DNA of 64,000 nucleotides. Origin: Escherichia virus TH15. Where the stretch lies: the sequence record MT446392.1; one strand, given 5' to 3'. Position numbers and translations under genes: made by a program. Under the pieces are notes generated by a model, which worked only from the letters and a program-made list of their open reading frames with translations, was not told where the DNA came from and did not search any database. Below, in pieces: positions 3,483 to 59,199 of this stretch. Positions within the stretch are counted from its first letter, which is position 1; each line of letters begins with the position of its first letter.

Positions 3483-4004
3483 TTAATCCCTCGCGTATAC
3501 GTATGAACGCAATTTATCTGCACATCGGCTCCAGTTACCGACGATAGTTTTTGTGTAAACTTTTGTCATTGTCTTTCTTACTGGGGCCGGAGGTGGGTCT
3601 GTCTCGTTGCCTGCCCGACTATTACTACCACCAGAGTTCCCTGTGTCTCCTCCAGAGCTCTCTTCTTGAAAGTCATAGGTTAGGGTTACTGTGTATGAAA
3701 AGACCTTCTGGAGGCTCGCTGGGGCCCTCCAGAGATACAATTGAGTGCTCTTATCCACAGGAAGTTCTTCCCATGAAGCAGCAGTTTTGAATTCATCATC
3801 AAGCCGATATTTAAGTGCATCATCTGCAAATCCGAACACGGATTCATAAACACCATAAAGATGATTGCCCTCAACATTAACGCCAGGGGTGGCCTCATAT
3901 TCAGTTATATTTATTTCGACTAATGTTTCGTTTGTTTCTAATTGAGCTGTAAACGTAACATCGATTGAGGCTCCTTCCATGGAGTCTCCTAGGTCAGTGC
4001 TCAT
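3483..4004 (-). CDS. 5.1: hypothetical protein, gp5.1-like by position
   Basis: ORF 3483..4064; start placed at internal Met 21 (4004) because the longer start overlaps gene 5; Ser/Gly/Pro-rich C-terminus. Confidence 0.4.
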   Translation of the reverse strand: MSTDLGDSMEGASIDVTFTAQLETNETLVEINITEYEATPGVNVEGNHLYGVYESVFGFADDALKYRLDDEFKTAASWEELPVDKSTQLYLWRAPASLQKVFSYTVTLTYDFQEESSGGDTGNSGGSNSRAGNETDPPPAPVRKTMTKVYTKTIVGNWSRCADKLRSYVYARD

Positions 4005-4014
4005 TGGGGTTATA

Positions 4015-5757
4015 TTAGCCAATGTCAATCCTCGAACCATCAATAGTATATTGTCCAGATGCAATAGAACTCATTGAAGCCATAGTCTCGGACCAAGCAC
4101 CTGCACAAGTCCAAGATACAGTACCATTTACAGTCCAGTTTAAATTACCATTAGTCGTGCGAGTTTCATTACCTTCTACTAAGGTAGTCGCATCACCCTT
4201 AACAGTAACATCAGCATTTCCTTCAACAATAACAGTAACGTTGCCTTTAACTCTGAGTGTTCCATTACCTTCTACAGTTTTCTCTTCGTTACCACGAATA
4301 TGGATGGTTTCGTTTCCATCGGTCTGACGACGAACGTTAGCCATATTGTAATAGGTTTCATCACCGCCAACGTTGACTTTATTATTACCACCGACATAAG
4401 TACTCGAATCGCCCTGGGTCATATAATAACCATCGGCTACCGTCTTCGAAGTCTTACGACCATCTGGTGCAACTTCCTCGTAGGAGCCAGTCGGGTGAAT
4501 CAGTCGATAACGTTCTTGCCCTGGAGTGTTATCGAATTCCTGAATATGTCCGCCTTCGGTTTGCATTGTCTGCACATAAGGATATTCGCCCTTGTAACTT
4601 GATTCTGGCTCTTTAAATAGAATCCTCGTATCTTCTGGAGTCCACGGGTCGGCCGGGTCAGAATTTGTAGGGGCCGCAAAGGTTTGAATCATCCTATATG
4701 AACGCCCTTTAAATTCCATTTCTTTAGGGGCCATTATACCATATGATTCCATATTACCGGTAAGGATAATCATTGATACCCTTGATGCACGCCCTTTAGT
4801 TTGGTTAAACCATACTGAATTACGAGCTTCCTCAAATGCCTTTTTATAATCGCCTATTAACATTGCACTAAGCATTCCACGGAATTTAGCAAGTCCACCT
4901 AATCCCATTTGGAAAGCCATGTTTTCAAGAGCCATTTGTCTCGAACGGTTTTCTTTATTGTAAACCGGACCTACAACACTATGCCTACCTATATCACTTT
5001 GTACTTTCTTAAGGTCTTCCTGGAATAATTTGGAAGCCTCGTCCATTGATATTGCGCCAGGGTTACCTTTAACTTCACGGCCTATTTGATTAGATAATAT
5101 TTTGTTTATCTGATTCATATCTCTAATAGGTTGTGGTGTAATAAGGTGGCCAATCCCGACAGTCGGATAACCTTCGGTGTCCCAATATACTTTCAGACGA
5201 AGCCCCTCATCACGGTGAAGCATATTTTCAATTGTGAAATTAGGGTTATCGTCTGGCTTAACCTGACTTAAATCAAGACCATCAGGGTTAATACCCAAAT
5301 CAAGGTTTGAATCCTGGATTACGTTTGAAGTGGCATCATAACCAACTTCACCCCCTCGGTTAAGCGCTGCAGCATCATTACCGACATAAAGTGGGTATTG
5401 TCCTGTGGGGTCAGAGAAACCTTCGTTAGGATTTGCTTTTTGCCTTGAGGCTGAACCGTATGTACCAATGACAAGACCGTTGAGCTTCCACTTGTCTAAA
5501 AAGTGACCATACACCTGAGTCCCTGGTACCATACCAGTCATGGCAGTTTGAATTCCAGAAACCGACGCAGATGATGTTGGCATCAGCACAGACATCCATG
5601 GTAGGTCTTCAGTTCTGATACCTTTTACAGGCCCTTGTGATTTCTCATATGGATGCATACCCCATACACGAACACGGACTCTACCTTGCTGAAGCGGGTC
5701 CATTCGGTCTTCAACCACACCGACGAACCAGCTTACACTATCTGACATATTAATCAT
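4015..5757 (-). CDS. 5: baseplate hub / tail lysozyme gp5
   Basis: 580 aa; central lysozyme-like segment (GYPTVGIGHLI, cf. T4 lysozyme [10 protein letters not shown]) and C-terminal VxGxxTxxVEGN beta-helix repeats. Confidence 0.85.
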   Translation of the reverse strand: MINMSDSVSWFVGVVEDRMDPLQQGRVRVRVWGMHPYEKSQGPVKGIRTEDLPWMSVLMPTSSASVSGIQTAMTGMVPGTQVYGHFLDKWKLNGLVIGTYGSASRQKANPNEGFSDPTGQYPLYVGNDAAALNRGGEVGYDATSNVIQDSNLDLGINPDGLDLSQVKPDDNPNFTIENMLHRDEGLRLKVYWDTEGYPTVGIGHLITPQPIRDMNQINKILSNQIGREVKGNPGAISMDEASKLFQEDLKKVQSDIGRHSVVGPVYNKENRSRQMALENMAFQMGLGGLAKFRGMLSAMLIGDYKKAFEEARNSVWFNQTKGRASRVSMIILTGNMESYGIMAPKEMEFKGRSYRMIQTFAAPTNSDPADPWTPEDTRILFKEPESSYKGEYPYVQTMQTEGGHIQEFDNTPGQERYRLIHPTGSYEEVAPDGRKTSKTVADGYYMTQGDSSTYVGGNNKVNVGGDETYYNMANVRRQTDGNETIHIRGNEEKTVEGNGTLRVKGNVTVIVEGNADVTVKGDATTLVEGNETRTTNGNLNWTVNGTVSWTCAGAWSETMASMSSIASGQYTIDGSRIDIG

Positions 5758-49329: not shown

Positions 49330-49755
49330 TTGAATAGAGAGAATATTATGAACAACGTAACTGCTAAAGATATCCAAGTTAAAACCATCCGCACCGACGC
49401 TAACCCACATAACCAAAACCGCATCCGTAAATCCTGGGTCCTGGCATGTGATGAAGTATCTGCCACCCGTCTGAAATCACTTCCTCAAGAAGTTAAATTT
49501 ATGTTGTATGGTGTTATTGATACTGATGTATCTGATAAGTGGATTGAACTGATGCAACGTCATTACACCGAATCTCTGGCAGCTGGTGCTAAACTGGTTA
49601 TCGACCGTGACGGCTCCGAACGTCTAGAAGATGATTACTGTGTTGACTTCGATGACCACCTGGTCCAAGCTGGTTCTATTATTGCTGCGCAACTTCCAGA
49701 GTATATTGAATCTCTTCCGGAAGCTATCCGCAAACAAATGGCAGTTGTTGCGTGA
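49330..49755 (+). CDS. hypothetical protein (position corresponds to T4 rpbA/45.2)
   Basis: 141-aa ORF upstream of the gene 45 cluster. Confidence 0.4.
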   Translation: MNRENIMNNVTAKDIQVKTIRTDANPHNQNRIRKSWVLACDEVSATRLKSLPQEVKFMLYGVIDTDVSDKWIELMQRHYTESLAAGAKLVIDRDGSERLEDDYCVDFDDHLVQAGSIIAAQLPEYIESLPEAIRKQMAVVA

Positions 49756-50639
49756 ATTTGATTTATAAAATAACCTTTATAACAAGGGAACAAAATAACG
49801 AATTCCCTTGTTATTATATTGGTTCAAAGGTTGATGCGACATTTAACGGTCAAAATATTCTCGACAAAAATAATAAAATTTATACAGGTTCTCCGAATTC
49901 AAAATACACTAAGCTGTATAATGAATTGATTGATAGAGGTGACTATATTGTTACTATCATTGGAGAAACAAAGCAGGACCCAAGAAAAATAGAAAATATT
50001 TTTCAAATGTCAGTTAAAGCTGTAACCAATGAGAAGTACTTTAATAAAACGTATGCTCACGACCAAAGCCGGTATGATGCTCCTGGATATGCTCCATACC
50101 GAAACTTGAAAACAGGTAAAGTCGTTAAATTGCATCCATCTGAACTTACATCTGATTATGTTGGTGTTCGTAAAGACTGCTCAATTTCGGATAAGCACAT
50201 TCAAGCAATTAAAGACTTTCAAAAAGAATATTGGACTGCCGAAGCTCGACAAGCAAGGTCTATTGAAGTCAAAAATCGTTATAAAGATGCCGAGTATGCT
50301 TTAAAATTCAAAGTTATAATGAATACATCTGAAGTATACGAAAAATATTTAAAATCAATTACTGAATATTGGAATAATTCAGATAATAGAATAAAGGCTT
50401 CAAAACGAGCAACTGAAAGAAATGCTAGTCCTGAGTTTAAAGAAAAATTTAGGAAATCCAAAGCAAGGGGAACCTGGTTGCAGTATGAAGATGAACTTAA
50501 AACATTGTGGAATGCTTTAGGTCAACCGGGGTATATTAAGTTTAGAAAACACGCCATTGAACATGGGTTTAATGATGAAAATTATCAGGGTGCAATCCGG
50601 TCCTGGTCAAATTATTATGTTAATAGGAAAATGAAATGA
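49752..50639 (+). CDS. GIY-YIG homing endonuclease (Seg-like)
   Basis: 295 aa; N-terminal LIYKITFITREQNNEFPCYYIGSK is a GIY-(13 aa)-YIG module; lysine-rich repeats follow. Confidence 0.6.
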   Translation: MNLIYKITFITREQNNEFPCYYIGSKVDATFNGQNILDKNNKIYTGSPNSKYTKLYNELIDRGDYIVTIIGETKQDPRKIENIFQMSVKAVTNEKYFNKTYAHDQSRYDAPGYAPYRNLKTGKVVKLHPSELTSDYVGVRKDCSISDKHIQAIKDFQKEYWTAEARQARSIEVKNRYKDAEYALKFKVIMNTSEVYEKYLKSITEYWNNSDNRIKASKRATERNASPEFKEKFRKSKARGTWLQYEDELKTLWNALGQPGYIKFRKHAIEHGFNDENYQGAIRSWSNYYVNRKMK

Positions 50640-51385: not shown

Positions 51386-52345
51386 ATGTTAACGGTTAAT
51401 GACAAAGAATTCATGTGGGAACAAAAATACCGCCCAGGTACATTATCAGAGTGTATTCTGCCGGCTCATGATAAAGAAACATTAGAGGCGATTGTTAAAA
51501 AAGGTTTGATTCCTAACTTGATTCTGGTCAGTAGTTCCCCTGGTACTGGTAAGACAACAGTTGCGAAAGCTATGTGCGCGGATACGAATTCTGATATGCT
51601 GTTTGTTAACGGCTCCGATTGCCGAATTGACTTTGTGCGTAATGAATTGACTCGCTTTGCATCATCCAAATCAATCGAAGGACGCCGTAAGGTAATCGTG
51701 ATTGACGAGTTCGACCGCGCGGGTCTGGCGGAATCCCAGCGACACCTCCGTAGTTTCATGGAAGCTTATTCAAGCAACTGTTCTATCATTATGACCGCGA
51801 ACAACATCGATGGTATCATCACTCCATTGCAGTCCCGTTGTCGTGTGATTAAATTCGGTGAGTCAACCGATGAAGACCGCACCTCCATGCTTAAGCAGAT
51901 GATTCATCGTTCAGTGGCTATCTGTAAGAACGAAGGTGTTGAAATCGAAGACCTGAAAGTTGTTGCTGCCCTGGTTAAGCATAACTTCCCGGACTTGCGT
52001 AAGACAATTAACGAGCTTGACCGTTACTCTGCGAAGGGTGTTATCGATTCTGGTATCTTAAGTATCGTGACAAATAATCGCACTCCAATCGATGATGTGA
52101 TTGATGCCCTTAAAGACCGTAACTTTAAAGTTCTTCGTGGTCTGGCACCGAAATTTGCAAACGATTATTCAAACTTCATTGCCAAGCTCGCTGATGAAAT
52201 GTATGGCAAACTGACTGGTGCAAGCATCATCCGTATGTATGAAATTGTGGGTGAGAACAATCAGTATCACGGGCTGGCAGCGAACACCGAAGTTCACCTG
52301 ACCTACTTGTTTGCTCAACTGGCTGGGGAAATGAAATGGCTGTAA
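51386..52345 (+). CDS. 44: clamp loader large subunit gp44
   Basis: 319 aa as in T4 gp44; Walker A SSPGTGKTT; conserved position. Confidence 0.85.
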   Translation: MLTVNDKEFMWEQKYRPGTLSECILPAHDKETLEAIVKKGLIPNLILVSSSPGTGKTTVAKAMCADTNSDMLFVNGSDCRIDFVRNELTRFASSKSIEGRRKVIVIDEFDRAGLAESQRHLRSFMEAYSSNCSIIMTANNIDGIITPLQSRCRVIKFGESTDEDRTSMLKQMIHRSVAICKNEGVEIEDLKVVAALVKHNFPDLRKTINELDRYSAKGVIDSGILSIVTNNRTPIDDVIDALKDRNFKVLRGLAPKFANDYSNFIAKLADEMYGKLTGASIIRMYEIVGENNQYHGLAANTEVHLTYLFAQLAGEMKWL

Positions 52346-52914
52346 GTCTCTTTGATGATGACGTTCAATTAAACGAACATGAGGTTGCGTGGAAATCACG
52401 CGACTTTAACAAAATTCAGGAATTGTCTGATTCATACAAAGAGAAAGCCGAAAATGAATTGTTTGCGATTCTTAATGATGTCACCGTGAGTAAAAAGCCT
52501 CGGTGTCTGATTCAATCGGAAAACTATAATAAATTTTGGTTGGACAATGCCCTGAGCCAACATGTTGATTGTATTATGCAGGTCAATGTGATGAACTTAA
52601 TCGGGGCCGGGTTAACAGACCAGCAGCATTACAATTATCTGTTGCATGCAGTTCCACAAGGCAAGCGTTATGGCAAATGGGCGAAGGCTGAGCCGGATGT
52701 AGTCAGCGTCCAGCTTGTGTTAAAGCTTTTAATGAAATATTATACAATTAATGCAGATGATGCTTTGATGTATATGGAAACATTGAAAGTCAAAGGTAGT
52801 CTTAAAGATGTTTTGAAAAAGACAAAGGGTCTGGTGACGGATGAATTCTTAAAGACCGTTACCAGTAATGTGAAAGAACAAAAAGAAATTAAAAAACAAA
52901 TATTGGAATGGTAA
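52336..52914 (+). CDS. 62: clamp loader small subunit gp62
   Basis: 192 aa (T4 gp62 about 187 aa); overlaps the gene 44 stop; conserved position. Confidence 0.8.
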   Translation: MAVSLFDDDVQLNEHEVAWKSRDFNKIQELSDSYKEKAENELFAILNDVTVSKKPRCLIQSENYNKFWLDNALSQHVDCIMQVNVMNLIGAGLTDQQHYNYLLHAVPQGKRYGKWAKAEPDVVSVQLVLKLLMKYYTINADDALMYMETLKVKGSLKDVLKKTKGLVTDEFLKTVTSNVKEQKEIKKQILEW

Positions 52915-52915
52915 A

Positions 52916-53284
52916 ATGATTGAAATTACATTAAAGCAACCTGAAGACTTCCTGAAAGTTAAAGAAACTCTGACCCGTATGGGCATCGCAAATAATAAAG
53001 ACCGTGTGCTGTACCAGAGCTGTCACATCCTCCAAAAGCAAGGTCGTTACTATATTGTTCACTTCAAAGAAATGCTGCGCATGGATGGCCGCCAGGTGGA
53101 TATTGATGGCGAAGACTATCAGCGCCGTGATTCCATCGCTCAACTGCTCGAAGACTGGGGCTTAATCGCTATCAAAGAAGAAGAGCATAATGAATTGTTC
53201 GCAGTAACAAATAACTTCCGTGTTATCTCATTCAAACAAAAAGACGACTGGAAGCTCGTGGCCAAATATACAATTGGAAATTAA
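52916..53284 (+). CDS. regA: translational repressor RegA
   Basis: 122 aa; MIEITLKQPEDFLKVKETLTRMGIANNKDRVLYQSCHILQK... closely parallels T4 RegA, same length. Confidence 0.9.
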   Translation: MIEITLKQPEDFLKVKETLTRMGIANNKDRVLYQSCHILQKQGRYYIVHFKEMLRMDGRQVDIDGEDYQRRDSIAQLLEDWGLIAIKEEEHNELFAVTNNFRVISFKQKDDWKLVAKYTIGN

Positions 53285-53285
53285 T

Positions 53286-53504
53286 ATGAATACTGAAATT
53301 AAACAAGAATTGATGAATGACATTAAAGTTGCTTATGGATTGACTGAAGACCAGACCGTATTTGACCTTGATGAAGATTTACAGCTAGAATTCCAAAAAG
53401 AATTTGAAAGGGCTGTTAATCCAAACTGCAAAGTTTTCCAAGCCGTTATTAAAACTATTACATCCGAAGGCGTAAGGTATACTCGTCATGCGGTAGAAAT
53501 TTAA
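53286..53504 (+). CDS. hypothetical small protein
   Basis: Start at Met 23 of ORF 53220..53504, right after the regA stop. Confidence 0.4.
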   Translation: MNTEIKQELMNDIKVAYGLTEDQTVFDLDEDLQLEFQKEFERAVNPNCKVFQAVIKTITSEGVRYTRHAVEI

Positions 53505-53509
53505 AGCAA

Positions 53510-53529
53510 AGGGACTTCGGTCCCTTTTG
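53510..53529 (+). terminator. UUCG-loop hairpin / weak terminator upstream of gene 43
   Basis: AGGGAC-TTCG-GTCCCT followed by TTTGT; then TAGTATAAT -10-like element at 53531-53538. Confidence 0.45.
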
Positions 53530-53589
53530 TAGTATAATAGCGTCAAGTCATAAAACAAAAGTCAATCACTCGACTATAAAGGAAACCAA

Positions 53590-55113
53590 ATGCAAGAATT
53601 TTATTTAACTATCGAACAAATCGGTGACAACCTGCTCGAACGGTACATTGACAAGAATGGTCATGAACGTGTTCGTGAAATCCCTTATGCTCCATGCTTG
53701 TTTATGCATGCTCGCGAAGACCAGGCTGCAAAGTATACAGACATCTATAATAAAGGTTGTGTGAAAAAAGAATTCGATTCCATGCGTGATGCATCCCAGT
53801 GGATGAAGCGCATGAACGATATGGGCCTCGAAGCTATGGGTATGGACGATTTCAAACTCGCGTACCTGAGCGACCGTTACCCACATGAAATCAAATACGA
53901 TTCAAGTAAAATCCGTGTGGCTAACTTCGATATCGAGGTGACATCTCCTGATGGGTTCCCTGAGCCGTCTGAAGCACGTCACCCTATCGATGCCCTGACG
54001 CACTATGATTCGGTAGACGATAAATTCTATGTCTTTGACCTTTTGAGCTCGCCATACGCCACTGTGGAGCAATGGTCTATTGATATTGCTGCTAAGCTGC
54101 AGGAAGATGGCGGTGATGAAGTCCCCGAAGAAATCCTGGAAAAAATTGTTTATATGGCTTTCGATTCAGAAGAAGAAATGCTCCAGCAGTATTTGGTATT
54201 CTGGAACGAGAAAACTCCGGTTATGTTAACTGGTTGGAACATCGAGAAATTTGATATTCCGTATATCTACAACCGCATTAAAAATGTATTTGGTGAAGCT
54301 ACGGCCAAACGTCTGAGCCCACATCGTCGTACAAAAGTTAAAGTCATTAACAACGGCTTTGGTGAAGAACAAGAAATCATTCAGATTCTGGGTATCTCTG
54401 TTCTGGATTATCTGGACCTGTACAAAAAGTTCAGCTTCACAAACCAACCGTCTTACTCGTTGGACTATGTTGCGGAATCTGAGCTGGGTGTTGGTAAACT
54501 TCCGTATGATGGCCCGATTTCTAAATTACGTGAATCCAATCACCAGCGATACATCAGCTATAACATCATTGACGTTTATCGTGTTGTGCAGATTGACCGT
54601 AAGCGACAGTTCATTAACCTGAGCCAATCGATGGGTTATTATGCAAAGATGCAGATTCAGTCTGTATTCAGCCCAATCAAAACTTGGGATGCGATTATCT
54701 TTAACAGTCTGAAGACTCAAAACAAGGTTATCCCTGAAACCAAATCACATGTTCGTCAATCGTTCCCTGGTGCATTTGTTAAGGAACCGATTCCGAACGC
54801 ATACAAATATGTAATGAGCTGTGACTTAACATCTCTGTATCCGAGCATCATCCGACAGATTAACATCAGTCCAGAAACGATTGCCGGGTCATTTGCACCA
54901 GCCCAGATGCACGAATACATCGCAGGAACTGCTGACCGTCCATCTGATGCATTTAGTTGTGCGCCAAATGGTATGATGTATTTTAAAGATGTTGCGGGTA
55001 TTATTCCGACAGAAGTTGAGAAAGTTTTTAATCAACGAAAAACCGAAAAGAAAAAGATGTTGGCGGCACAACGTAATAGTGAATTGATTAAAGAAATTTT
55101 ACATGGAAAATAA
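53590..55113 (+). CDS. 43: DNA polymerase gp43, N-terminal segment (exonuclease and N-terminal domains)
   Basis: 507-aa ORF ending in a stop; contains B-family polymerase N-terminal and 3'-5' exonuclease regions (e.g. FDIEV); continues in ORF 55791..56966. Confidence 0.85.
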   Translation: MQEFYLTIEQIGDNLLERYIDKNGHERVREIPYAPCLFMHAREDQAAKYTDIYNKGCVKKEFDSMRDASQWMKRMNDMGLEAMGMDDFKLAYLSDRYPHEIKYDSSKIRVANFDIEVTSPDGFPEPSEARHPIDALTHYDSVDDKFYVFDLLSSPYATVEQWSIDIAAKLQEDGGDEVPEEILEKIVYMAFDSEEEMLQQYLVFWNEKTPVMLTGWNIEKFDIPYIYNRIKNVFGEATAKRLSPHRRTKVKVINNGFGEEQEIIQILGISVLDYLDLYKKFSFTNQPSYSLDYVAESELGVGKLPYDGPISKLRESNHQRYISYNIIDVYRVVQIDRKRQFINLSQSMGYYAKMQIQSVFSPIKTWDAIIFNSLKTQNKVIPETKSHVRQSFPGAFVKEPIPNAYKYVMSCDLTSLYPSIIRQINISPETIAGSFAPAQMHEYIAGTADRPSDAFSCAPNGMMYFKDVAGIIPTEVEKVFNQRKTEKKKMLAAQRNSELIKEILHGK

Positions 55114-55801
55114 ATTGCATTTTGTGTATAAAATTACAAATAACATTAATGGTAAAATTTACATCGGTGTTCACAGCACCGATGATATTAATGATGGATA
55201 TTTGGGCAAAGGTACTTTAATTCAGAAAGCTATTAAAAAATATGGGAAATCTAATTTTAAAAAGGAAATTTTGGAATTTTTCGAGGACCGCACTTCAGCC
55301 TTTGACAAAGAGCGAGAGCTTGTAACCAGAGAATTTGTCAGTTTGACAACAAACTATAATTTAAAAACTGGCGGCGAAGGTGGTGCAATGTATGGTAAAA
55401 CCAATCCGATGTATGGTCGAACATATAGGAAGTCGGAATCAGAGAAGACCCAAATTTCGTTGCGATTTAAAAATGTTCCCAAAACCAACCAGCACAAACA
55501 AAACCTATCCAATTCATTACTCGGTAAACCCAGACCGGACATCGCTGAGAGACAGCGCGGATTGTTACCCTGGAATGTTAATTCTATTCGCAATAACAAA
55601 ACCAGACTAAGAAAATTCGCCGACCTGGATATTATTTTCGATTATTGGTCTAGTCATAAATGTGGTGTTAAAGCATTAGCGAATTGGTATCAACTGGCGA
55701 CGTATAATGAATTAGCATCCGTTATGCGATTCATTAAAAAGTATGGTGACCCGCGACTGAATGGTGATTGGAAAAAATTTAAGGCTGACTATGAATATTG
55801 A
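55103..55801 (+). CDS. GIY-YIG homing endonuclease inserted within gene 43
   Basis: 232 aa; HFVYKITNNINGKIYIGVHS is a GIY-(10 aa)-YIG module; MYGKTNPMYGRT repeats; overlaps both polymerase ORFs by about 11 nt. Confidence 0.75.
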   Translation: MENKLHFVYKITNNINGKIYIGVHSTDDINDGYLGKGTLIQKAIKKYGKSNFKKEILEFFEDRTSAFDKERELVTREFVSLTTNYNLKTGGEGGAMYGKTNPMYGRTYRKSESEKTQISLRFKNVPKTNQHKQNLSNSLLGKPRPDIAERQRGLLPWNVNSIRNNKTRLRKFADLDIIFDYWSSHKCGVKALANWYQLATYNELASVMRFIKKYGDPRLNGDWKKFKADYEY

Positions 55802-56966
55802 TTATAATGCTGATTTTACAGAAGAACAAATCGAATACTTAAAAACTTTGTCTAAAGATGAATTGGAACACCATTTATACAATTCTCAAATGGCTGAAGT
55901 AGCTGCAAACACCGCGCAGATTAACCGTAAACTGCTTATCAATAGCTGTTATGGTGCTCTGGGCAATATCTGGTTCCGTTACTTTGACCTGCGAAATGCA
56001 ACTGCGATTACATCTTTCGGGCAACTTGCATTGCAGTGGATTGAGCGTAAAGTTAACGAATACTTCGATAGTGTTTGTGGTACAAGTGGTGAGACTTACG
56101 TATTCTATGGCGATACTGACTCCATTTATATCCAGTGCGATAACCTGATTAAAAAGGTTGGTGGTGAATCTAAATTCCGCGATACAAACCACCTGGTTGA
56201 CTTCATGGACAAGTTTGCAAAAGACCGTCTGGAACCGGCAATTGATAAAGCTTTCCGTGAACTGGCCGAATACATGAACAATAAACAGCACCTTATGTTT
56301 ATGGACCGTGAAGCGATTGCATGTCCTCCGCTGGGTTCTAAAGGCGTGGGTGGATTCTGGACGGCGAAGAAGCGTTATGCGTTGAACGTGTATGATATGG
56401 AAGGCACACGATATGCTGTTCCGAAACTGAAAATTATGGGTCTGGAAACTCAAAAGTCGAGCACTCCAAAAGCATGTCAGAAAGCTCTGAAAGAATGTAT
56501 CCGTCGCATGCTGCAAGAAGGTGAAGAATCTCTGCAGACATACTTCAAGGAATTCAATAAGGAATTTAATGAGCTTAACTACATGACCATCGCAGGTGTA
56601 TCATCGGTTAACAACATCCAGAAATATAATGAGGGCGGTTTCCCTGGATTTAAGTGCCCGGCTCATATCAAAGGTGTGCTTGCATATATGCGTGCAACTA
56701 AAGGGCTGAAGACTGTTCCGCAAATCATGGAAGGGGAAAAGGTGTATGTGCTTCCTCTTAAAGTTGGTAATCCGTTTGGCGAAACCGTGATTGCGTGGCC
56801 ATCAGGGATTGAACTCCCGATTGAAATTCGTGACCAAGTCTTGCAGTGGATGGACTACAACACACTGTTCCAGAAGACTTTTGTTAAGCCATTGACAGGG
56901 TTCTCTGAAGCAGCTAAGGTTGATTACGAGAAAAAAGCATCTCTTTTTGATATGTTTGATTTTTAA
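55791..56966 (+). CDS. 43: DNA polymerase gp43, C-terminal segment (palm/thumb, motif C YGDTDS)
   Basis: Start at Met 11 of ORF 55761..56966; INSCYGALGN and YGDTDSIY polymerase motifs. Confidence 0.85.
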   Translation: MNIDYNADFTEEQIEYLKTLSKDELEHHLYNSQMAEVAANTAQINRKLLINSCYGALGNIWFRYFDLRNATAITSFGQLALQWIERKVNEYFDSVCGTSGETYVFYGDTDSIYIQCDNLIKKVGGESKFRDTNHLVDFMDKFAKDRLEPAIDKAFRELAEYMNNKQHLMFMDREAIACPPLGSKGVGGFWTAKKRYALNVYDMEGTRYAVPKLKIMGLETQKSSTPKACQKALKECIRRMLQEGEESLQTYFKEFNKEFNELNYMTIAGVSSVNNIQKYNEGGFPGFKCPAHIKGVLAYMRATKGLKTVPQIMEGEKVYVLPLKVGNPFGETVIAWPSGIELPIEIRDQVLQWMDYNTLFQKTFVKPLTGFSEAAKVDYEKKASLFDMFDF

Positions 56967-57038
56967 GTGTTTACAATGGCAAAGGATTGCCGTATGATTA
57001 CTCCATCAATTACTGATGATTAACTTAAGGATATTAAA

Positions 57039-57281
57039 ATGGAAACATTAATTGCGGGTACTGTTGTTCTTGGTGCTGGTTCTTTCTTCTTGGCTGCACT
57101 GACCTATTTTCTACCGTGGATTATCGCGCTACTGCGTGGAACCAAAAGTAATTGCGGAATCTTCTTTGTTAACCTTCTGTTAGGTTGGACAATGGTTGGG
57201 TGGTTTATTGCGTTTATTTGGGCACTCGTTGCTGAACGTAAATCAAACGCACAGTTAATTATCATCAAGGAAACCAAATGA
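57039..57281 (+). CDS. imm: superinfection immunity membrane protein Imm
   Basis: 80 aa with two TM helices, downstream of gene 43 as in T4. Confidence 0.6.
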   Translation: METLIAGTVVLGAGSFFLAALTYFLPWIIALLRGTKSNCGIFFVNLLLGWTMVGWFIAFIWALVAERKSNAQLIIIKETK

Positions 57282-57421
57282 AGATAATTACAATTATTGT
57301 ACTGATTGCATTTTTTAGTATGTCAATCTATTGGGCAATAATGACTCCGCATATGATTCCAACTTTAATTTTGGGTTGGATATTTTTGGGACTCCAAGCC
57401 CGTTATGAATGTTTTAATTGA
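57278..57421 (+). CDS. small hydrophobic peptide (47 aa, imm.1-like by position)
   Basis: Hand-translated MKIITIIVLIAFFSMSIYWAIM...; ATGA overlap with imm. Confidence 0.4.
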   Translation: MKIITIIVLIAFFSMSIYWAIMTPHMIPTLILGWIFLGLQARYECFN

Positions 57422-57431
57422 GGAAAATACA

Positions 57432-57935
57432 ATGAAAAAGTTAGCTATCGCAGCTGTTATGCTGCTATCTGGTTGTGCTTACCAGGGTGATGTAGTTAAT
57501 GTCAGTGAAATTGGTAAAGCGCGAATTGCTGCAGACCGTCAGGTGCATAATGGTTCCTTTGATTTCAAAGGTGGTACTGGGCTTATCTACAAACGCGACA
57601 ATAGTCAGTGTGGAAATAACTGCGCGAAATATGCTCAACAAGAAATTGAGTACAAACGCGAGCAAGCTGCGAAGCATGATGAAGTAATCGCTAAATTAGA
57701 AGCAGAAACTAAGCGACAAAATGACTTGGATACTGTTAACCAGATTTCACAGGTCTGCATGTCTTACATCAATATGCAGATAAACATCATGCGCGCGGAA
57801 GCTTATCAGGCAGCGGAGACTGGTTCTCCAAAAGCCAATGAGTATCGCGATATGTATCAGCGTTCTGCTCAAAATCGTCTGAGCTATATTAATAAATGTG
57901 TGGCTAAAGAGAAAGCCCGCCAAGGTATTAACTAA
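57432..57935 (+). CDS. lipoprotein (candidate superinfection-exclusion factor)
   Basis: Start at Met 10 of ORF 57405..57935; signal peptide plus lipobox LLSGC; occupies the interval where T4 has genes 42 and beta-gt. Confidence 0.5.
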   Translation: MKKLAIAAVMLLSGCAYQGDVVNVSEIGKARIAADRQVHNGSFDFKGGTGLIYKRDNSQCGNNCAKYAQQEIEYKREQAAKHDEVIAKLEAETKRQNDLDTVNQISQVCMSYINMQINIMRAEAYQAAETGSPKANEYRDMYQRSAQNRLSYINKCVAKEKARQGIN

Positions 57936-57942
57936 CATTAAT

Positions 57943-57969
57943 TGCTCTAAAAATACAGTGATATAATTA
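57943..57969 (+). promoter_or_regulatory. possible MotA-type middle promoter upstream of uvsX
   Basis: MotA-box-like TTGCTCTA, about 13 nt, then TATAAT (57964-57969). Confidence 0.3.
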
Positions 57970-58020
57970 TCCTATCTTAAACCTGTGAGAAAAATATAAT
58001 GGTGCCTATGGAAAAAATGA

Positions 58021-59199
58021 ATGTCTATTGCAGATTTGAAATCCCGTTTGATTAAAGCTTCTACATCCAAAATGACCGCGACTCTTACCAAGTCCAAGTT
58101 TTTTAATGATAAAGATGTAGTTCGTACAAAAATCCCGATGCTGAACATTGCAATCAGCGGTGCACTAGATGGTGGTATGCAGTCAGGTTTGACTATTTTT
58201 GCTGGTCCGTCAAAACACTTTAAATCCAATATGGGTTTAACGATGGTCTCTGCATATATGAACAAATACCCCGAAGCAATCTGTTTGTTCTATGATTCAG
58301 AATTTGGTATCACAGAAGCCTATCTGCGTGCAATGAAAGTAGACCCGGAACGTGTTATTCATACACCAATCCAGTCGGTTGAACAATTGAAAGTTGATAT
58401 GGTTAACCAGCTTGAAGCAATTGAGCGTGGTGAAAAAGTCATTATCTTTATTGACTCAATCGGTAACATGGCGTCGAAAAAAGAAACAGAAGATGCGATG
58501 AACGAAAAAGTCGTTGGTGATATGACTCGCGCTAAATCCCTGAAATCTCTGTTCCGTATTGTTACCCCATATTTTAGTATCAAGGATATTCCTTGTGTCG
58601 CGGTTAACCATACAATTGAGACGATTGAGATGTATAGCAAAACCGTTATGACCGGTGGTACAGGTGTTATGTATTCTGCGGACACCGTATTCATTATCGG
58701 CAAACGCCAGATTAAAGAAACCGGTAAAGAGCTTGAAGGTTTCCAATTTGTACTGAACGCCGAAAAATCTCGTATGGTCAAAGAGAAAAGTAAATTCTTC
58801 ATTGATGTAAAATTCGATGGTGGTATTGACCCGTATTCTGGCCTGCTTGATATGGCAATGGAAATTGGATTTGTGGTGAAGCCGAAAGTTGGTTGGTATA
58901 ACCGTGAATATCTTGATGTTGAGACCGGTGAAATGGTCCGCGAAGAAAAATCATGGCGAGCAAAAGATACTAACTGCACTGAATTCTGGGGCCCGCTGTT
59001 CAAGCACGAACCTTTCCGTGATGCAATCAAACGTCATTACCAACTGGGTGCAATCGATAGCAATGCTGTTGTTGATGCCGAAGTTGATGAGCTTATTAGT
59101 TCGAAAGTTGAAAAATACTCTGCACCAGAAGGCAAATCAAAACCATCTGCGGCAGACATCGAAAACGATTTAGATATGATGGAAGACCTTGATGAGTGA
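58021..59199 (+). CDS. uvsX: recombinase UvsX (RecA-like)
   Basis: 392 aa; ...LKSRLIKASTSKMTA...KIPMLNIAISGALDGGMQSGLTIFAGPSKHFKSN... closely parallels T4 UvsX. Confidence 0.9.
   Translation: MSIADLKSRLIKASTSKMTATLTKSKFFNDKDVVRTKIPMLNIAISGALDGGMQSGLTIFAGPSKHFKSNMGLTMVSAYMNKYPEAICLFYDSEFGITEAYLRAMKVDPERVIHTPIQSVEQLKVDMVNQLEAIERGEKVIIFIDSIGNMASKKETEDAMNEKVVGDMTRAKSLKSLFRIVTPYFSIKDIPCVAVNHTIETIEMYSKTVMTGGTGVMYSADTVFIIGKRQIKETGKELEGFQFVLNAEKSRMVKEKSKFFIDVKFDGGIDPYSGLLDMAMEIGFVVKPKVGWYNREYLDVETGEMVREEKSWRAKDTNCTEFWGPLFKHEPFRDAIKRHYQLGAIDSNAVVDAEVDELISSKVEKYSAPEGKSKPSAADIENDLDMMEDLDE

Follow-up and report, generated by a model that had tools for sequence, protein, structure and literature searches.

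Gene 43 of Escherichia virus TH15 lies in two cistrons around a GIY-YIG homing endonuclease gene, probably as an imported, already split cassette

We analysed a 64,000-nucleotide (nt) stretch of the genome of Escherichia virus TH15 (MT446392.1; the window, to which all positions below refer) and found that gene 43, encoding the family B DNA polymerase (PolB) gp43, is present as two adjacent cistrons, 43A and 43B, with a free-standing gene for a predicted GIY-YIG homing endonuclease between them. Together the cistrons amount to a complete gp43 (507 and 391 amino acids (aa), against 904 aa for the intact gp43 of phage VR26). It seems likely that TH15 makes its PolB in two pieces, and that the gene was already split when it arrived, on a cassette imported by endonuclease homing into a Gaprivervirus lineage with an intact gene 43. 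The arrangement had been described in an earlier note made from the letters of the window, and the table of open reading frames (ORFs), the sequence and Pfam agree with that description to the base: the 507-aa ORF stops at 55113, 43B starts at 55791, the ORF between them has 232 aa, and its overlaps with both pieces, given as about 11 nt, measure exactly 11 nt at each junction. The features are as follows.

53590-55113, + strand: gene 43A, 507 aa, with the stop codon TAA at 55111-55113 (ORF table)
55103-55113, + strand: junction 1, ATGGAAAATAA, the 11-nt overlap of 43A and the endonuclease gene
55103-55801, + strand: predicted free-standing Seg-like GIY-YIG homing endonuclease gene, 232 aa (Pfam, PHROG and an AlphaFold2 model)
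55780-55801, + strand: signals of junction 2, namely TAAGG at 55780-55784, the 43B start codon ATG at 55791 and the endonuclease stop codon TGA at 55799-55801
55791-55801, + strand: junction 2, ATGAATATTGA, the 11-nt overlap of the endonuclease gene and 43B
55791-56966, + strand: gene 43B, 391 aa (ORF table)

The polymerase domains are shared out between the two cistrons. In Pfam, 43A matches the PolB exonuclease domain (PF03104, 4.8e-26) and the N-terminal part of DNA_pol_B (PF00136, 8.9e-15), and the DNA_pol_B match continues in 43B (2.2e-11). The first piece holds the N-terminal domain, the 3'-5' exonuclease, the first half of the palm and the first fingers helix, and ends in the fingertip loop; the second holds the second fingers helix, the second half of the palm and the thumb. 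Motif A (DLTSLYPS, 54823-54846) lies inside 43A, and motif B (KLLINSCYG, 55929-55955) and motif C (YGDTDS, 56106-56123) both lie inside 43B; thus neither piece has a complete active site. Measured against VR26, both cistrons are under purifying selection, with ratios of non-synonymous to synonymous substitution (dN/dS) of 0.076 for 43A and 0.036 for 43B.

The start of 43B was placed at the ATG at 55791 and not at the first in-frame ATG (55761), because the TAAGG Shine-Dalgarno sequence is well spaced from the former and the N-terminus MNI(D/N)Y is kept in three related loci, L006 (ENA ERZ28618682), L008 (ENA ERZ13617679, 1691 nt) and L009 (an independent SRA assembly). With 43B as query, about 60 proteins were found that have 388-394 aa, share its start position and match it at 57-63% identity and 99-100% coverage. 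The naturally split matches include a protein of Acinetobacter phage Henu6 annotated as 'split DNA polymerase' and those of Aeromonas phages B614 and GomatiRiver_11 and of IME13, and the N-terminus common to split 43B proteins reads M-x-(L/I)-(D/E)-... DF-x-x-x-E-(I/L)-x-Y(L/I). The motif IEYLKTLS was also considered as one exclusive to split alleles, which holds only in part: the related DFSDEIKEKIKKLS occurs in intact RB69, and the motif was not relied on alone.

In an alignment with RB69 gp43, the end of 43A corresponds to residue ~505 and the start of 43B to residue ~513, with motif A (D411) on one side of the break and motif B (K560) on the other. The break falls in the fingertip loop between the two long helices of the fingers, which span residues 469-572 in RB69. 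Judged by this alignment, the split site is the same as in the naturally divided gp43A/gp43B of Aeromonas and Acinetobacter phages (Petrov et al. 2006, 2010). The earlier note had mentioned split gene 43 arrangements in a few T4 relatives, and this is correct: natural fingertip splits occur in phages 133, 44RR, 31, 25 and 65, with gaps of 2 bp to 3 kb, and Pfu polymerase with an engineered fingertip split acts like the wild type (PMC3061061). In phage 25, gp43A and gp43B co-purify with polymerase activity and the endonuclease gene seg43(25) occupies the intercistronic slot; in phage 44RR, an untranslated spacer alone lies between 43A and 43B (PMC2988022). By analogy with phage 25, 44RR and split Pfu, gp43A of TH15 (exonuclease, motif A and first fingers helix) and gp43B (second fingers helix with motif B, motif C and thumb) would be made separately and would rejoin non-covalently across the fingertip, giving a composite active site.

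The contents of the gap vary among other split alleles. In loci L011 and L012, 43A and 43B abut directly, in L011 with a 1-nt overlap (3615) and a longer 43A of 578 aa. The gap of L010 (3446-4011) contains two small unknown ORFs that are not endonucleases, the second overlapping 43B by 11 nt, and that of Acinetobacter phage Henu6 (L013, 2148-3943) contains five small unknown ORFs. The fingertip gap of gene 43 looks like a general insertion hotspot.

It is clear that the interruption in TH15 is real. A sequencing error at the stop codon 55111-55113, which the earlier note had kept in view, is ruled out by the same junctions in independent assemblies: L009 is 98.95% identical in nt over 954 nt spanning both junctions, and L008, a 71%-identical relative, has the same two 11-nt overlaps. 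An Rfam scan of 52000-58500 at E<=1 gave no match, hence no group I intron core is present; as a positive control, the gene 43 introns of L004 (an ENA metagenome contig), of L006 and of Aeromonas phage 25 score 64-81 bits with the same library. Similarly, no intein splicing or Hint domain was found by Pfam; 43A, the endonuclease gene and 43B each use a frame of their own, three in all, so the insert is in frame with neither half. The absence of an intron and of an in-frame intein-like insert had both been claimed before and both claims hold. Translational bypass is known from gene 60 of T4, and a single polypeptide could in principle also arise by RNA splicing or protein splicing, or be hidden by an assembly or sequencing artefact. 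We nevertheless regard a single polypeptide as extremely improbable: besides the empty Rfam scan and the absence of intein domains, purifying selection acts on the insert, which is a complete ORF in a frame that differs from those of both halves, the gap of 690 nt is to our knowledge far longer than any known ribosomal bypass, and several runs, assembled independently, gave this same structure.

We then compared the split locus with intact alleles. TH15 belongs to Gaprivervirus, with about 95% nt identity to VR26, VR25 and VR7 over 23 kb and similarly about 95% to SP18, and holds the classic 45-44-62-regA-43-imm-uvsX cluster. Gene 43 is intact and 2715 nt long in 30 of 30 among the matches listed (32 records at >=90% nt identity), and none of 50,697 phage records covers >=80% of the query sequence. 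The alignment with an intact gene 43 that the earlier note had proposed for placing the insertion gave sharp borders. Gene 43A is 96% identical in nt to VR26 as far as 55041; the first run of mismatches begins at 55042, directly after the QRK codons, nucleotide homology is undetectable from there to 55887, and from 55887 the sequences are again 94% identical, with stray mismatches to ~55917. These borders define one further feature.

~55042-55917, + strand: 'split cassette' of ~850 nt, made up of the 43A tail, the endonuclease gene and the 43B head, delimited by the loss and return of homology to VR26 and M719

The cassette stands in place of ~180 nt of the intact allele and includes a foreign 43A tail of ~60 nt (TEKKKMLAAQRNSELIKEILHGK) and a foreign 43B head of ~100-125 nt (MNIDYNADFTEEQIEYLKTLSKDELEHHLYNSQMAEVAAN). 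The G+C content of the polymerase body is 43%, against 36.9% in the endonuclease gene. The tail is of the split type: TEKKKMLAAQRNSELIK is 100% identical to L006 over 55 nt (within 55042-55101), and the two sequences diverge just before the endonuclease ATG. The head is only 76% identical to L006, bears the IEYLKTLSKDEL signature of other split alleles and, in its first 26 residues counted from the sequences, matches the split-type protein P0162 at 19 of 26 positions and VR26 at about 6 of 26. No split-type tail or head at high identity was found in isolates by tblastn with the 43B head and the 43A tail.

A similar cassette lies in a second genetic background. The flanks of L008 are Dhakavirus-like, 89-92% identical in nt to VR5 and JS98, both of which have an intact gene 43, and a 65%-identical endonuclease is carried at the same site. 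The foreign tract of L008 starts at the same codon and shares the 17-nt CCGAAAAGAAAAAGATG; its right-hand end lies near AEVAG. Within both genera the endonuclease gene is present or absent at a conserved place, with mosaic flanks where it is present. A common left border and the same succession of tail, endonuclease gene and head in two backgrounds argue that one portable unit entered two genera; in both, the three parts appear to behave as a single unit.

The earlier note had seen in the endonuclease the agent of the split, and this is the part of it that fails. A de novo event, in which transposition of the endonuclease gene split a Gaprivervirus gene 43 that had been intact until then, would agree with the intact genes of all close relatives and with the spacer-free contact between the endonuclease gene and both cistrons, and gene-splitting insertions of this kind are documented for mobE in nrdA of Aeh1 and mobA in gene 60 of T4, where endonuclease genes split their host genes by ectopic insertion (PMC2988022). 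We consider it quite unlikely in TH15, where the flanks on both sides were replaced and not just interrupted, tail and head differing from VR26 by more than point changes, where the 43A tail is found unchanged in L006 next to another endonuclease and an untranslated spacer, where the split position and the start of 43B match many endonuclease-free split alleles, and where the 43B head is closer to split alleles than to VR26. Because the same break occurs without an endonuclease in several lineages and the same 43A tail accompanies another endonuclease in L006, the endonuclease is most likely the vehicle that imported a ready-made split and not its creator.

The 232-aa ORF has the hallmarks of a Seg-like enzyme. 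It matches SegE_GIY-YIG (PF19835, 8.8e-07) and GIY-YIG (PF01541, 1e-05), both past the Pfam gathering cut-off, and PHROG 314 'homing endonuclease' (1.4e-45). Residues 1-95 form a canonical Seg-type GIY-YIG catalytic domain, with an AlphaFold predicted local distance difference test score (pLDDT) of 85-97, in which all 14 columns that are invariant among 31 family members (including seg43(25)) are retained: Y9, N13, Y20, G22, H24, D31, Y33, G35, G37, K46, E70, N86, G90 and G91. In Foldseek, the best PDB matches of the modelled N-terminal domain were the catalytic domain of I-TevI (1mk0, with probability 1.0, and 1ln0; target-normalised template modelling score 0.64), and the top structural matches of the protein in BFVD were Seg-like endonucleases; by sequence, no meaningful match was found in the PDB. 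Residues 94-169 make up a disordered linker with a single weak NUMOD3-like match. The C-terminal helical module (residues ~166-232) had five sequence relatives among 1.84 billion representatives in an exhaustive HMMER search, one of them a NUMOD3 endonuclease, and no significant fold match in the PDB by Foldseek. The ORF sits between the polymerase cistrons in its own frame, and Rfam found no intron around it.

The gene is rare. We found 10 sequence variants in 15 billion proteins, falling into two 90% clusters, with P0245 being the exact TH15 protein; in IMG/VR and the JGI metagenomes there were only relatives at <=56% identity. A search for a donor, with the endonuclease and the junction against the 50,697 phage records (tblastn and blastn), gave at best 35-44% identity, confined to the catalytic domains of Seg proteins. 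Despite its rarity the protein is under purifying selection: between TH15 and its homologue in L008 the ratio of non-synonymous to synonymous polymorphism (pN/pS) is ~0.3 alike in the catalytic, linker and C-terminal segments, with synonymous divergence saturated. It is unlikely, in our opinion, that the gene is a relic transmitted only vertically, inactive for homing or co-opted as a spacer or translational coupler for 43B. The activity of the enzyme is a prediction, the 11-nt overlaps place the ORF in the path of translation from 43A to 43B, which could alone select for an open frame, and the element is rare, with none of its variants in IMG/VR or the JGI metagenomes, all of which would fit a relic. 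However, selection acts on the amino acids of all three segments, beyond the upkeep of a frame, every invariant residue of the catalytic domain is retained, and the presence of the cassette in two genera with otherwise intact genes requires lateral transfer.

Both junctions are compact. At junction 1 the endonuclease ORF opens 8 nt before the TAA stop of 43A, and no Shine-Dalgarno sequence precedes it; the junction is kept in L009 and also in L008, there with GTG as the endonuclease start. The lack of a Shine-Dalgarno sequence, together with an ATG 8 nt before the 43A stop, suggests that the endonuclease is probably translated by termination-reinitiation at a low level. At junction 2, the last stretch of the endonuclease gene contains the TAAGG, 6 nt upstream of the 43B ATG, and the endonuclease reading frame closes 8 nt into 43B; the sequence TTTAAGG-N6-ATGAATATT(G/A)A is kept in TH15, L009 and L008. 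The endonuclease gene would be co-transcribed with gene 43, and 43B would be translated from its own Shine-Dalgarno sequence inside the endonuclease gene. The T4 late promoter TATAAATA was not found in 53000-57000, counts of sigma-70-like sites and terminators around the junctions were at the level of shuffled sequence, and neither junction had a stable hairpin or one that would sequester the ribosome binding site, the fold z-scores being positive.

We think it most likely that the cassette came into the TH15 lineage when the endonuclease made a double-strand break in an intact allele during mixed infection, and that repair copied in the endonuclease gene and co-converted its flanks. The fingertip split would have existed elsewhere beforehand and would have been carried in with the endonuclease. 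The target likely lies in or beside the replaced tract of intact alleles, because a carrier must be immune to its own enzyme. Several points weigh against this account of a two-piece polymerase and an imported cassette. The two polypeptides, their polymerase activity and the cleavage of DNA, with its target site, are predictions from the sequence, and DNA binding by the near-orphan C-terminal module is presumed. Footprints of partial conversion, that is, a split-type tail in an intact gene, were not found among isolates. The left border shared with L008 could reflect co-selection of tail and head or a recombination hotspot and not the position of cleavage. Separate transcription or structural control of the endonuclease is unsupported by the searches around the junctions, and its mode of expression is a guess.

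Additional states of gene 43 were found in relatives. In L004, gene 43 is unsplit and an endonuclease-less group I intron follows YGA. In L006 the order is a 43A of 507 aa, a 53-nt untranslated spacer, a 272-aa endonuclease with 41% full-length identity to seg43(25), exon 1 of 43B, the same intron and exon 2. The intron of L004 and L006 (5739-5952, 214 nt; RF00028, ~80 bits) breaks the homology to TH15 between 55957 and 55960; an RF00028 core was found in L004, L006 and L003 and is absent from TH15, and the gene 43 introns of L004 and L006 are homologous to those of phage 25 and G2285. The corresponding site in TH15 is empty.

55955-55960, + strand: empty group I intron site (YGA|LGN), within the uninterrupted TATGGTGCTCTGGGC at 55950-55964

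The full phage 25 arrangement is present in Mosigvirus vB_EcoM_G2285 (MK327933.1; L032, 1925-5726), where 43A (506 aa) is followed by an endonuclease of the seg43 type (3489-4322), by exon 1 of 43B (4322-4501) and, after a group I intron, by exon 2. In GenBank this locus is described only as 'unable to determine intron/exon boundaries'; the structure could be resolved from its ORFs. TH15 is a fourth state, split, with a different endonuclease, no spacer and an empty intron site.

We suggest only tentatively that the TH15 element may be a self-mobile gene-splitting cassette which brings matched halves of the fingertip and turns an intact polymerase gene into one for a two-subunit enzyme each time it homes, in at least two genera (Gaprivervirus and Dhakavirus), and which competes for its slot with a cassette of unrelated specificity, the seg43-like endonuclease and intron seen in L006 and G2285. 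If this is true, gene 43 of E. coli T-even phages would be an arena of allelic endonuclease competition in which four states coexist: intact; with the intron only; split with a seg43-like endonuclease and the intron; and split with a TH15-type endonuclease. The endonuclease seg43(25) reportedly cuts intron-less 43B sites. If the enzymes of L006 and G2285 act likewise, genomes of the TH15 type, whose intron site is empty, would be targets of the rival cassette.

Three further observations concern the surroundings of gene 43. A 72-aa ORF at 53286-53504, between regA and 43A, belongs to the family Phage_RB18_ORF43.1 (PF25760, 1.8e-19); it is an indel, which VR26 and pEC-M719-6WT.2 lack (homology gap 53286-53498) and L004 and L006 have. 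Directly upstream of gene 45 there is a 295-aa ORF (49752-50639, GTG start) with no Pfam match, which may be a mobile endonuclease; VR26 has at this place a gene with the annotation 'putative DNA endonuclease', and a 295-aa ORF is also found there in L006. The interval between imm and uvsX (57282-57935) varies between near relatives; it holds ORFs of 47 aa and 176 aa in TH15, with no Pfam match, and ORFs of 159 aa and 469 aa in L004 and L007, with only 70% identity over ~220 nt.

The split and intact alleles are one ~850-nt cassette apart in genes that are otherwise 94-96% identical, so that TH15 and VR26, VR7 or SP18 form a nearly isogenic and genetically tractable pair. Such a pair bears on the fidelity and nucleotide selectivity of a polymerase after a fingertip split (compare the work on split Pfu), on how the halves meet, and on how a selfish endonuclease restructures an essential enzyme without killing its host. 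It also carries a caution for annotation: two 'DNA polymerase' fragments in such genomes are not pseudogenes. With TH15, naturally split replicative polymerases and their probable spread by endonucleases extend from the T4 relatives of Aeromonas and Acinetobacter to the well-studied E. coli T-even group.

The closest known system is Aeromonas phage 25 (43A - seg43(25) - 43B; Petrov, Ratnayaka & Karam 2010, J Mol Biol 395:457, reviewed in PMC2988022), which has the same fingertip split and a Seg-like GIY-YIG gene in the same slot; the GIY-YIG domains of the two endonucleases are 46% identical over 89 aa. Phage 25 belongs to Tulanevirus and TH15 to Tevenvirinae/Gaprivervirus. Phage 25 has a 44-nt untranslated spacer and, in 43B, an endonuclease-less intron thought to be mobilised by seg43(25), whereas TH15 has neither, and its endonuclease gene, unlike that of phage 25, overlaps both cistrons. 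The lineage of seg43(25) and L006 has NUMOD3 repeats and a zinc finger tail (CxxC...H...C); the C-terminal half of the TH15 endonuclease is unrelated and lacks both, and this enzyme is a different occupant of the slot, probably with a target that differs from that of the seg43 lineage. L006 and G2285, of E. coli-type Tevenvirinae, have their split in this same codon region and share the 43B start MNIDYN with TH15, but differ in their spacer, their seg43-like endonuclease of 272-277 aa and the group I intron that follows. Aeromonas phages 44RR, 31 and 65 and Acinetobacter phages 133 and Henu6 have the same split site and a gap without an endonuclease. The intron-interrupted type of gene 43 (phage 25, JSE, G2285 and L004) has a group I core that is absent from TH15.

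Among other genes, mobE in nrdA of Aeh1 and mobA between T4 genes 60 and 39 are likewise free-standing endonuclease genes between the halves of an essential enzyme that still works as separate polypeptides; they are of the HNH family, lie in other host genes and are argued to have caused their splits themselves (PMC2988022). The T4 proteins SegA-G and I-TevI have the same catalytic fold and the same modular order of catalytic domain, linker and DNA-binding module as is predicted for the TH15 endonuclease. Its identity to Seg proteins is only 35-44% in the phage records, with the C-terminal module being near-orphan, and I-TevI is encoded in an intron, whereas the TH15 enzyme is not. A fingertip-split gp43 with a GIY-YIG gene between its cistrons is thus already known. 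What is new is the host clade, Gaprivervirus of E. coli, Shigella and Yersinia, with a sister cassette in Dhakavirus, and an endonuclease that is non-orthologous and very rare, without spacer or intron, with compact overlaps and with clear borders in two backgrounds.

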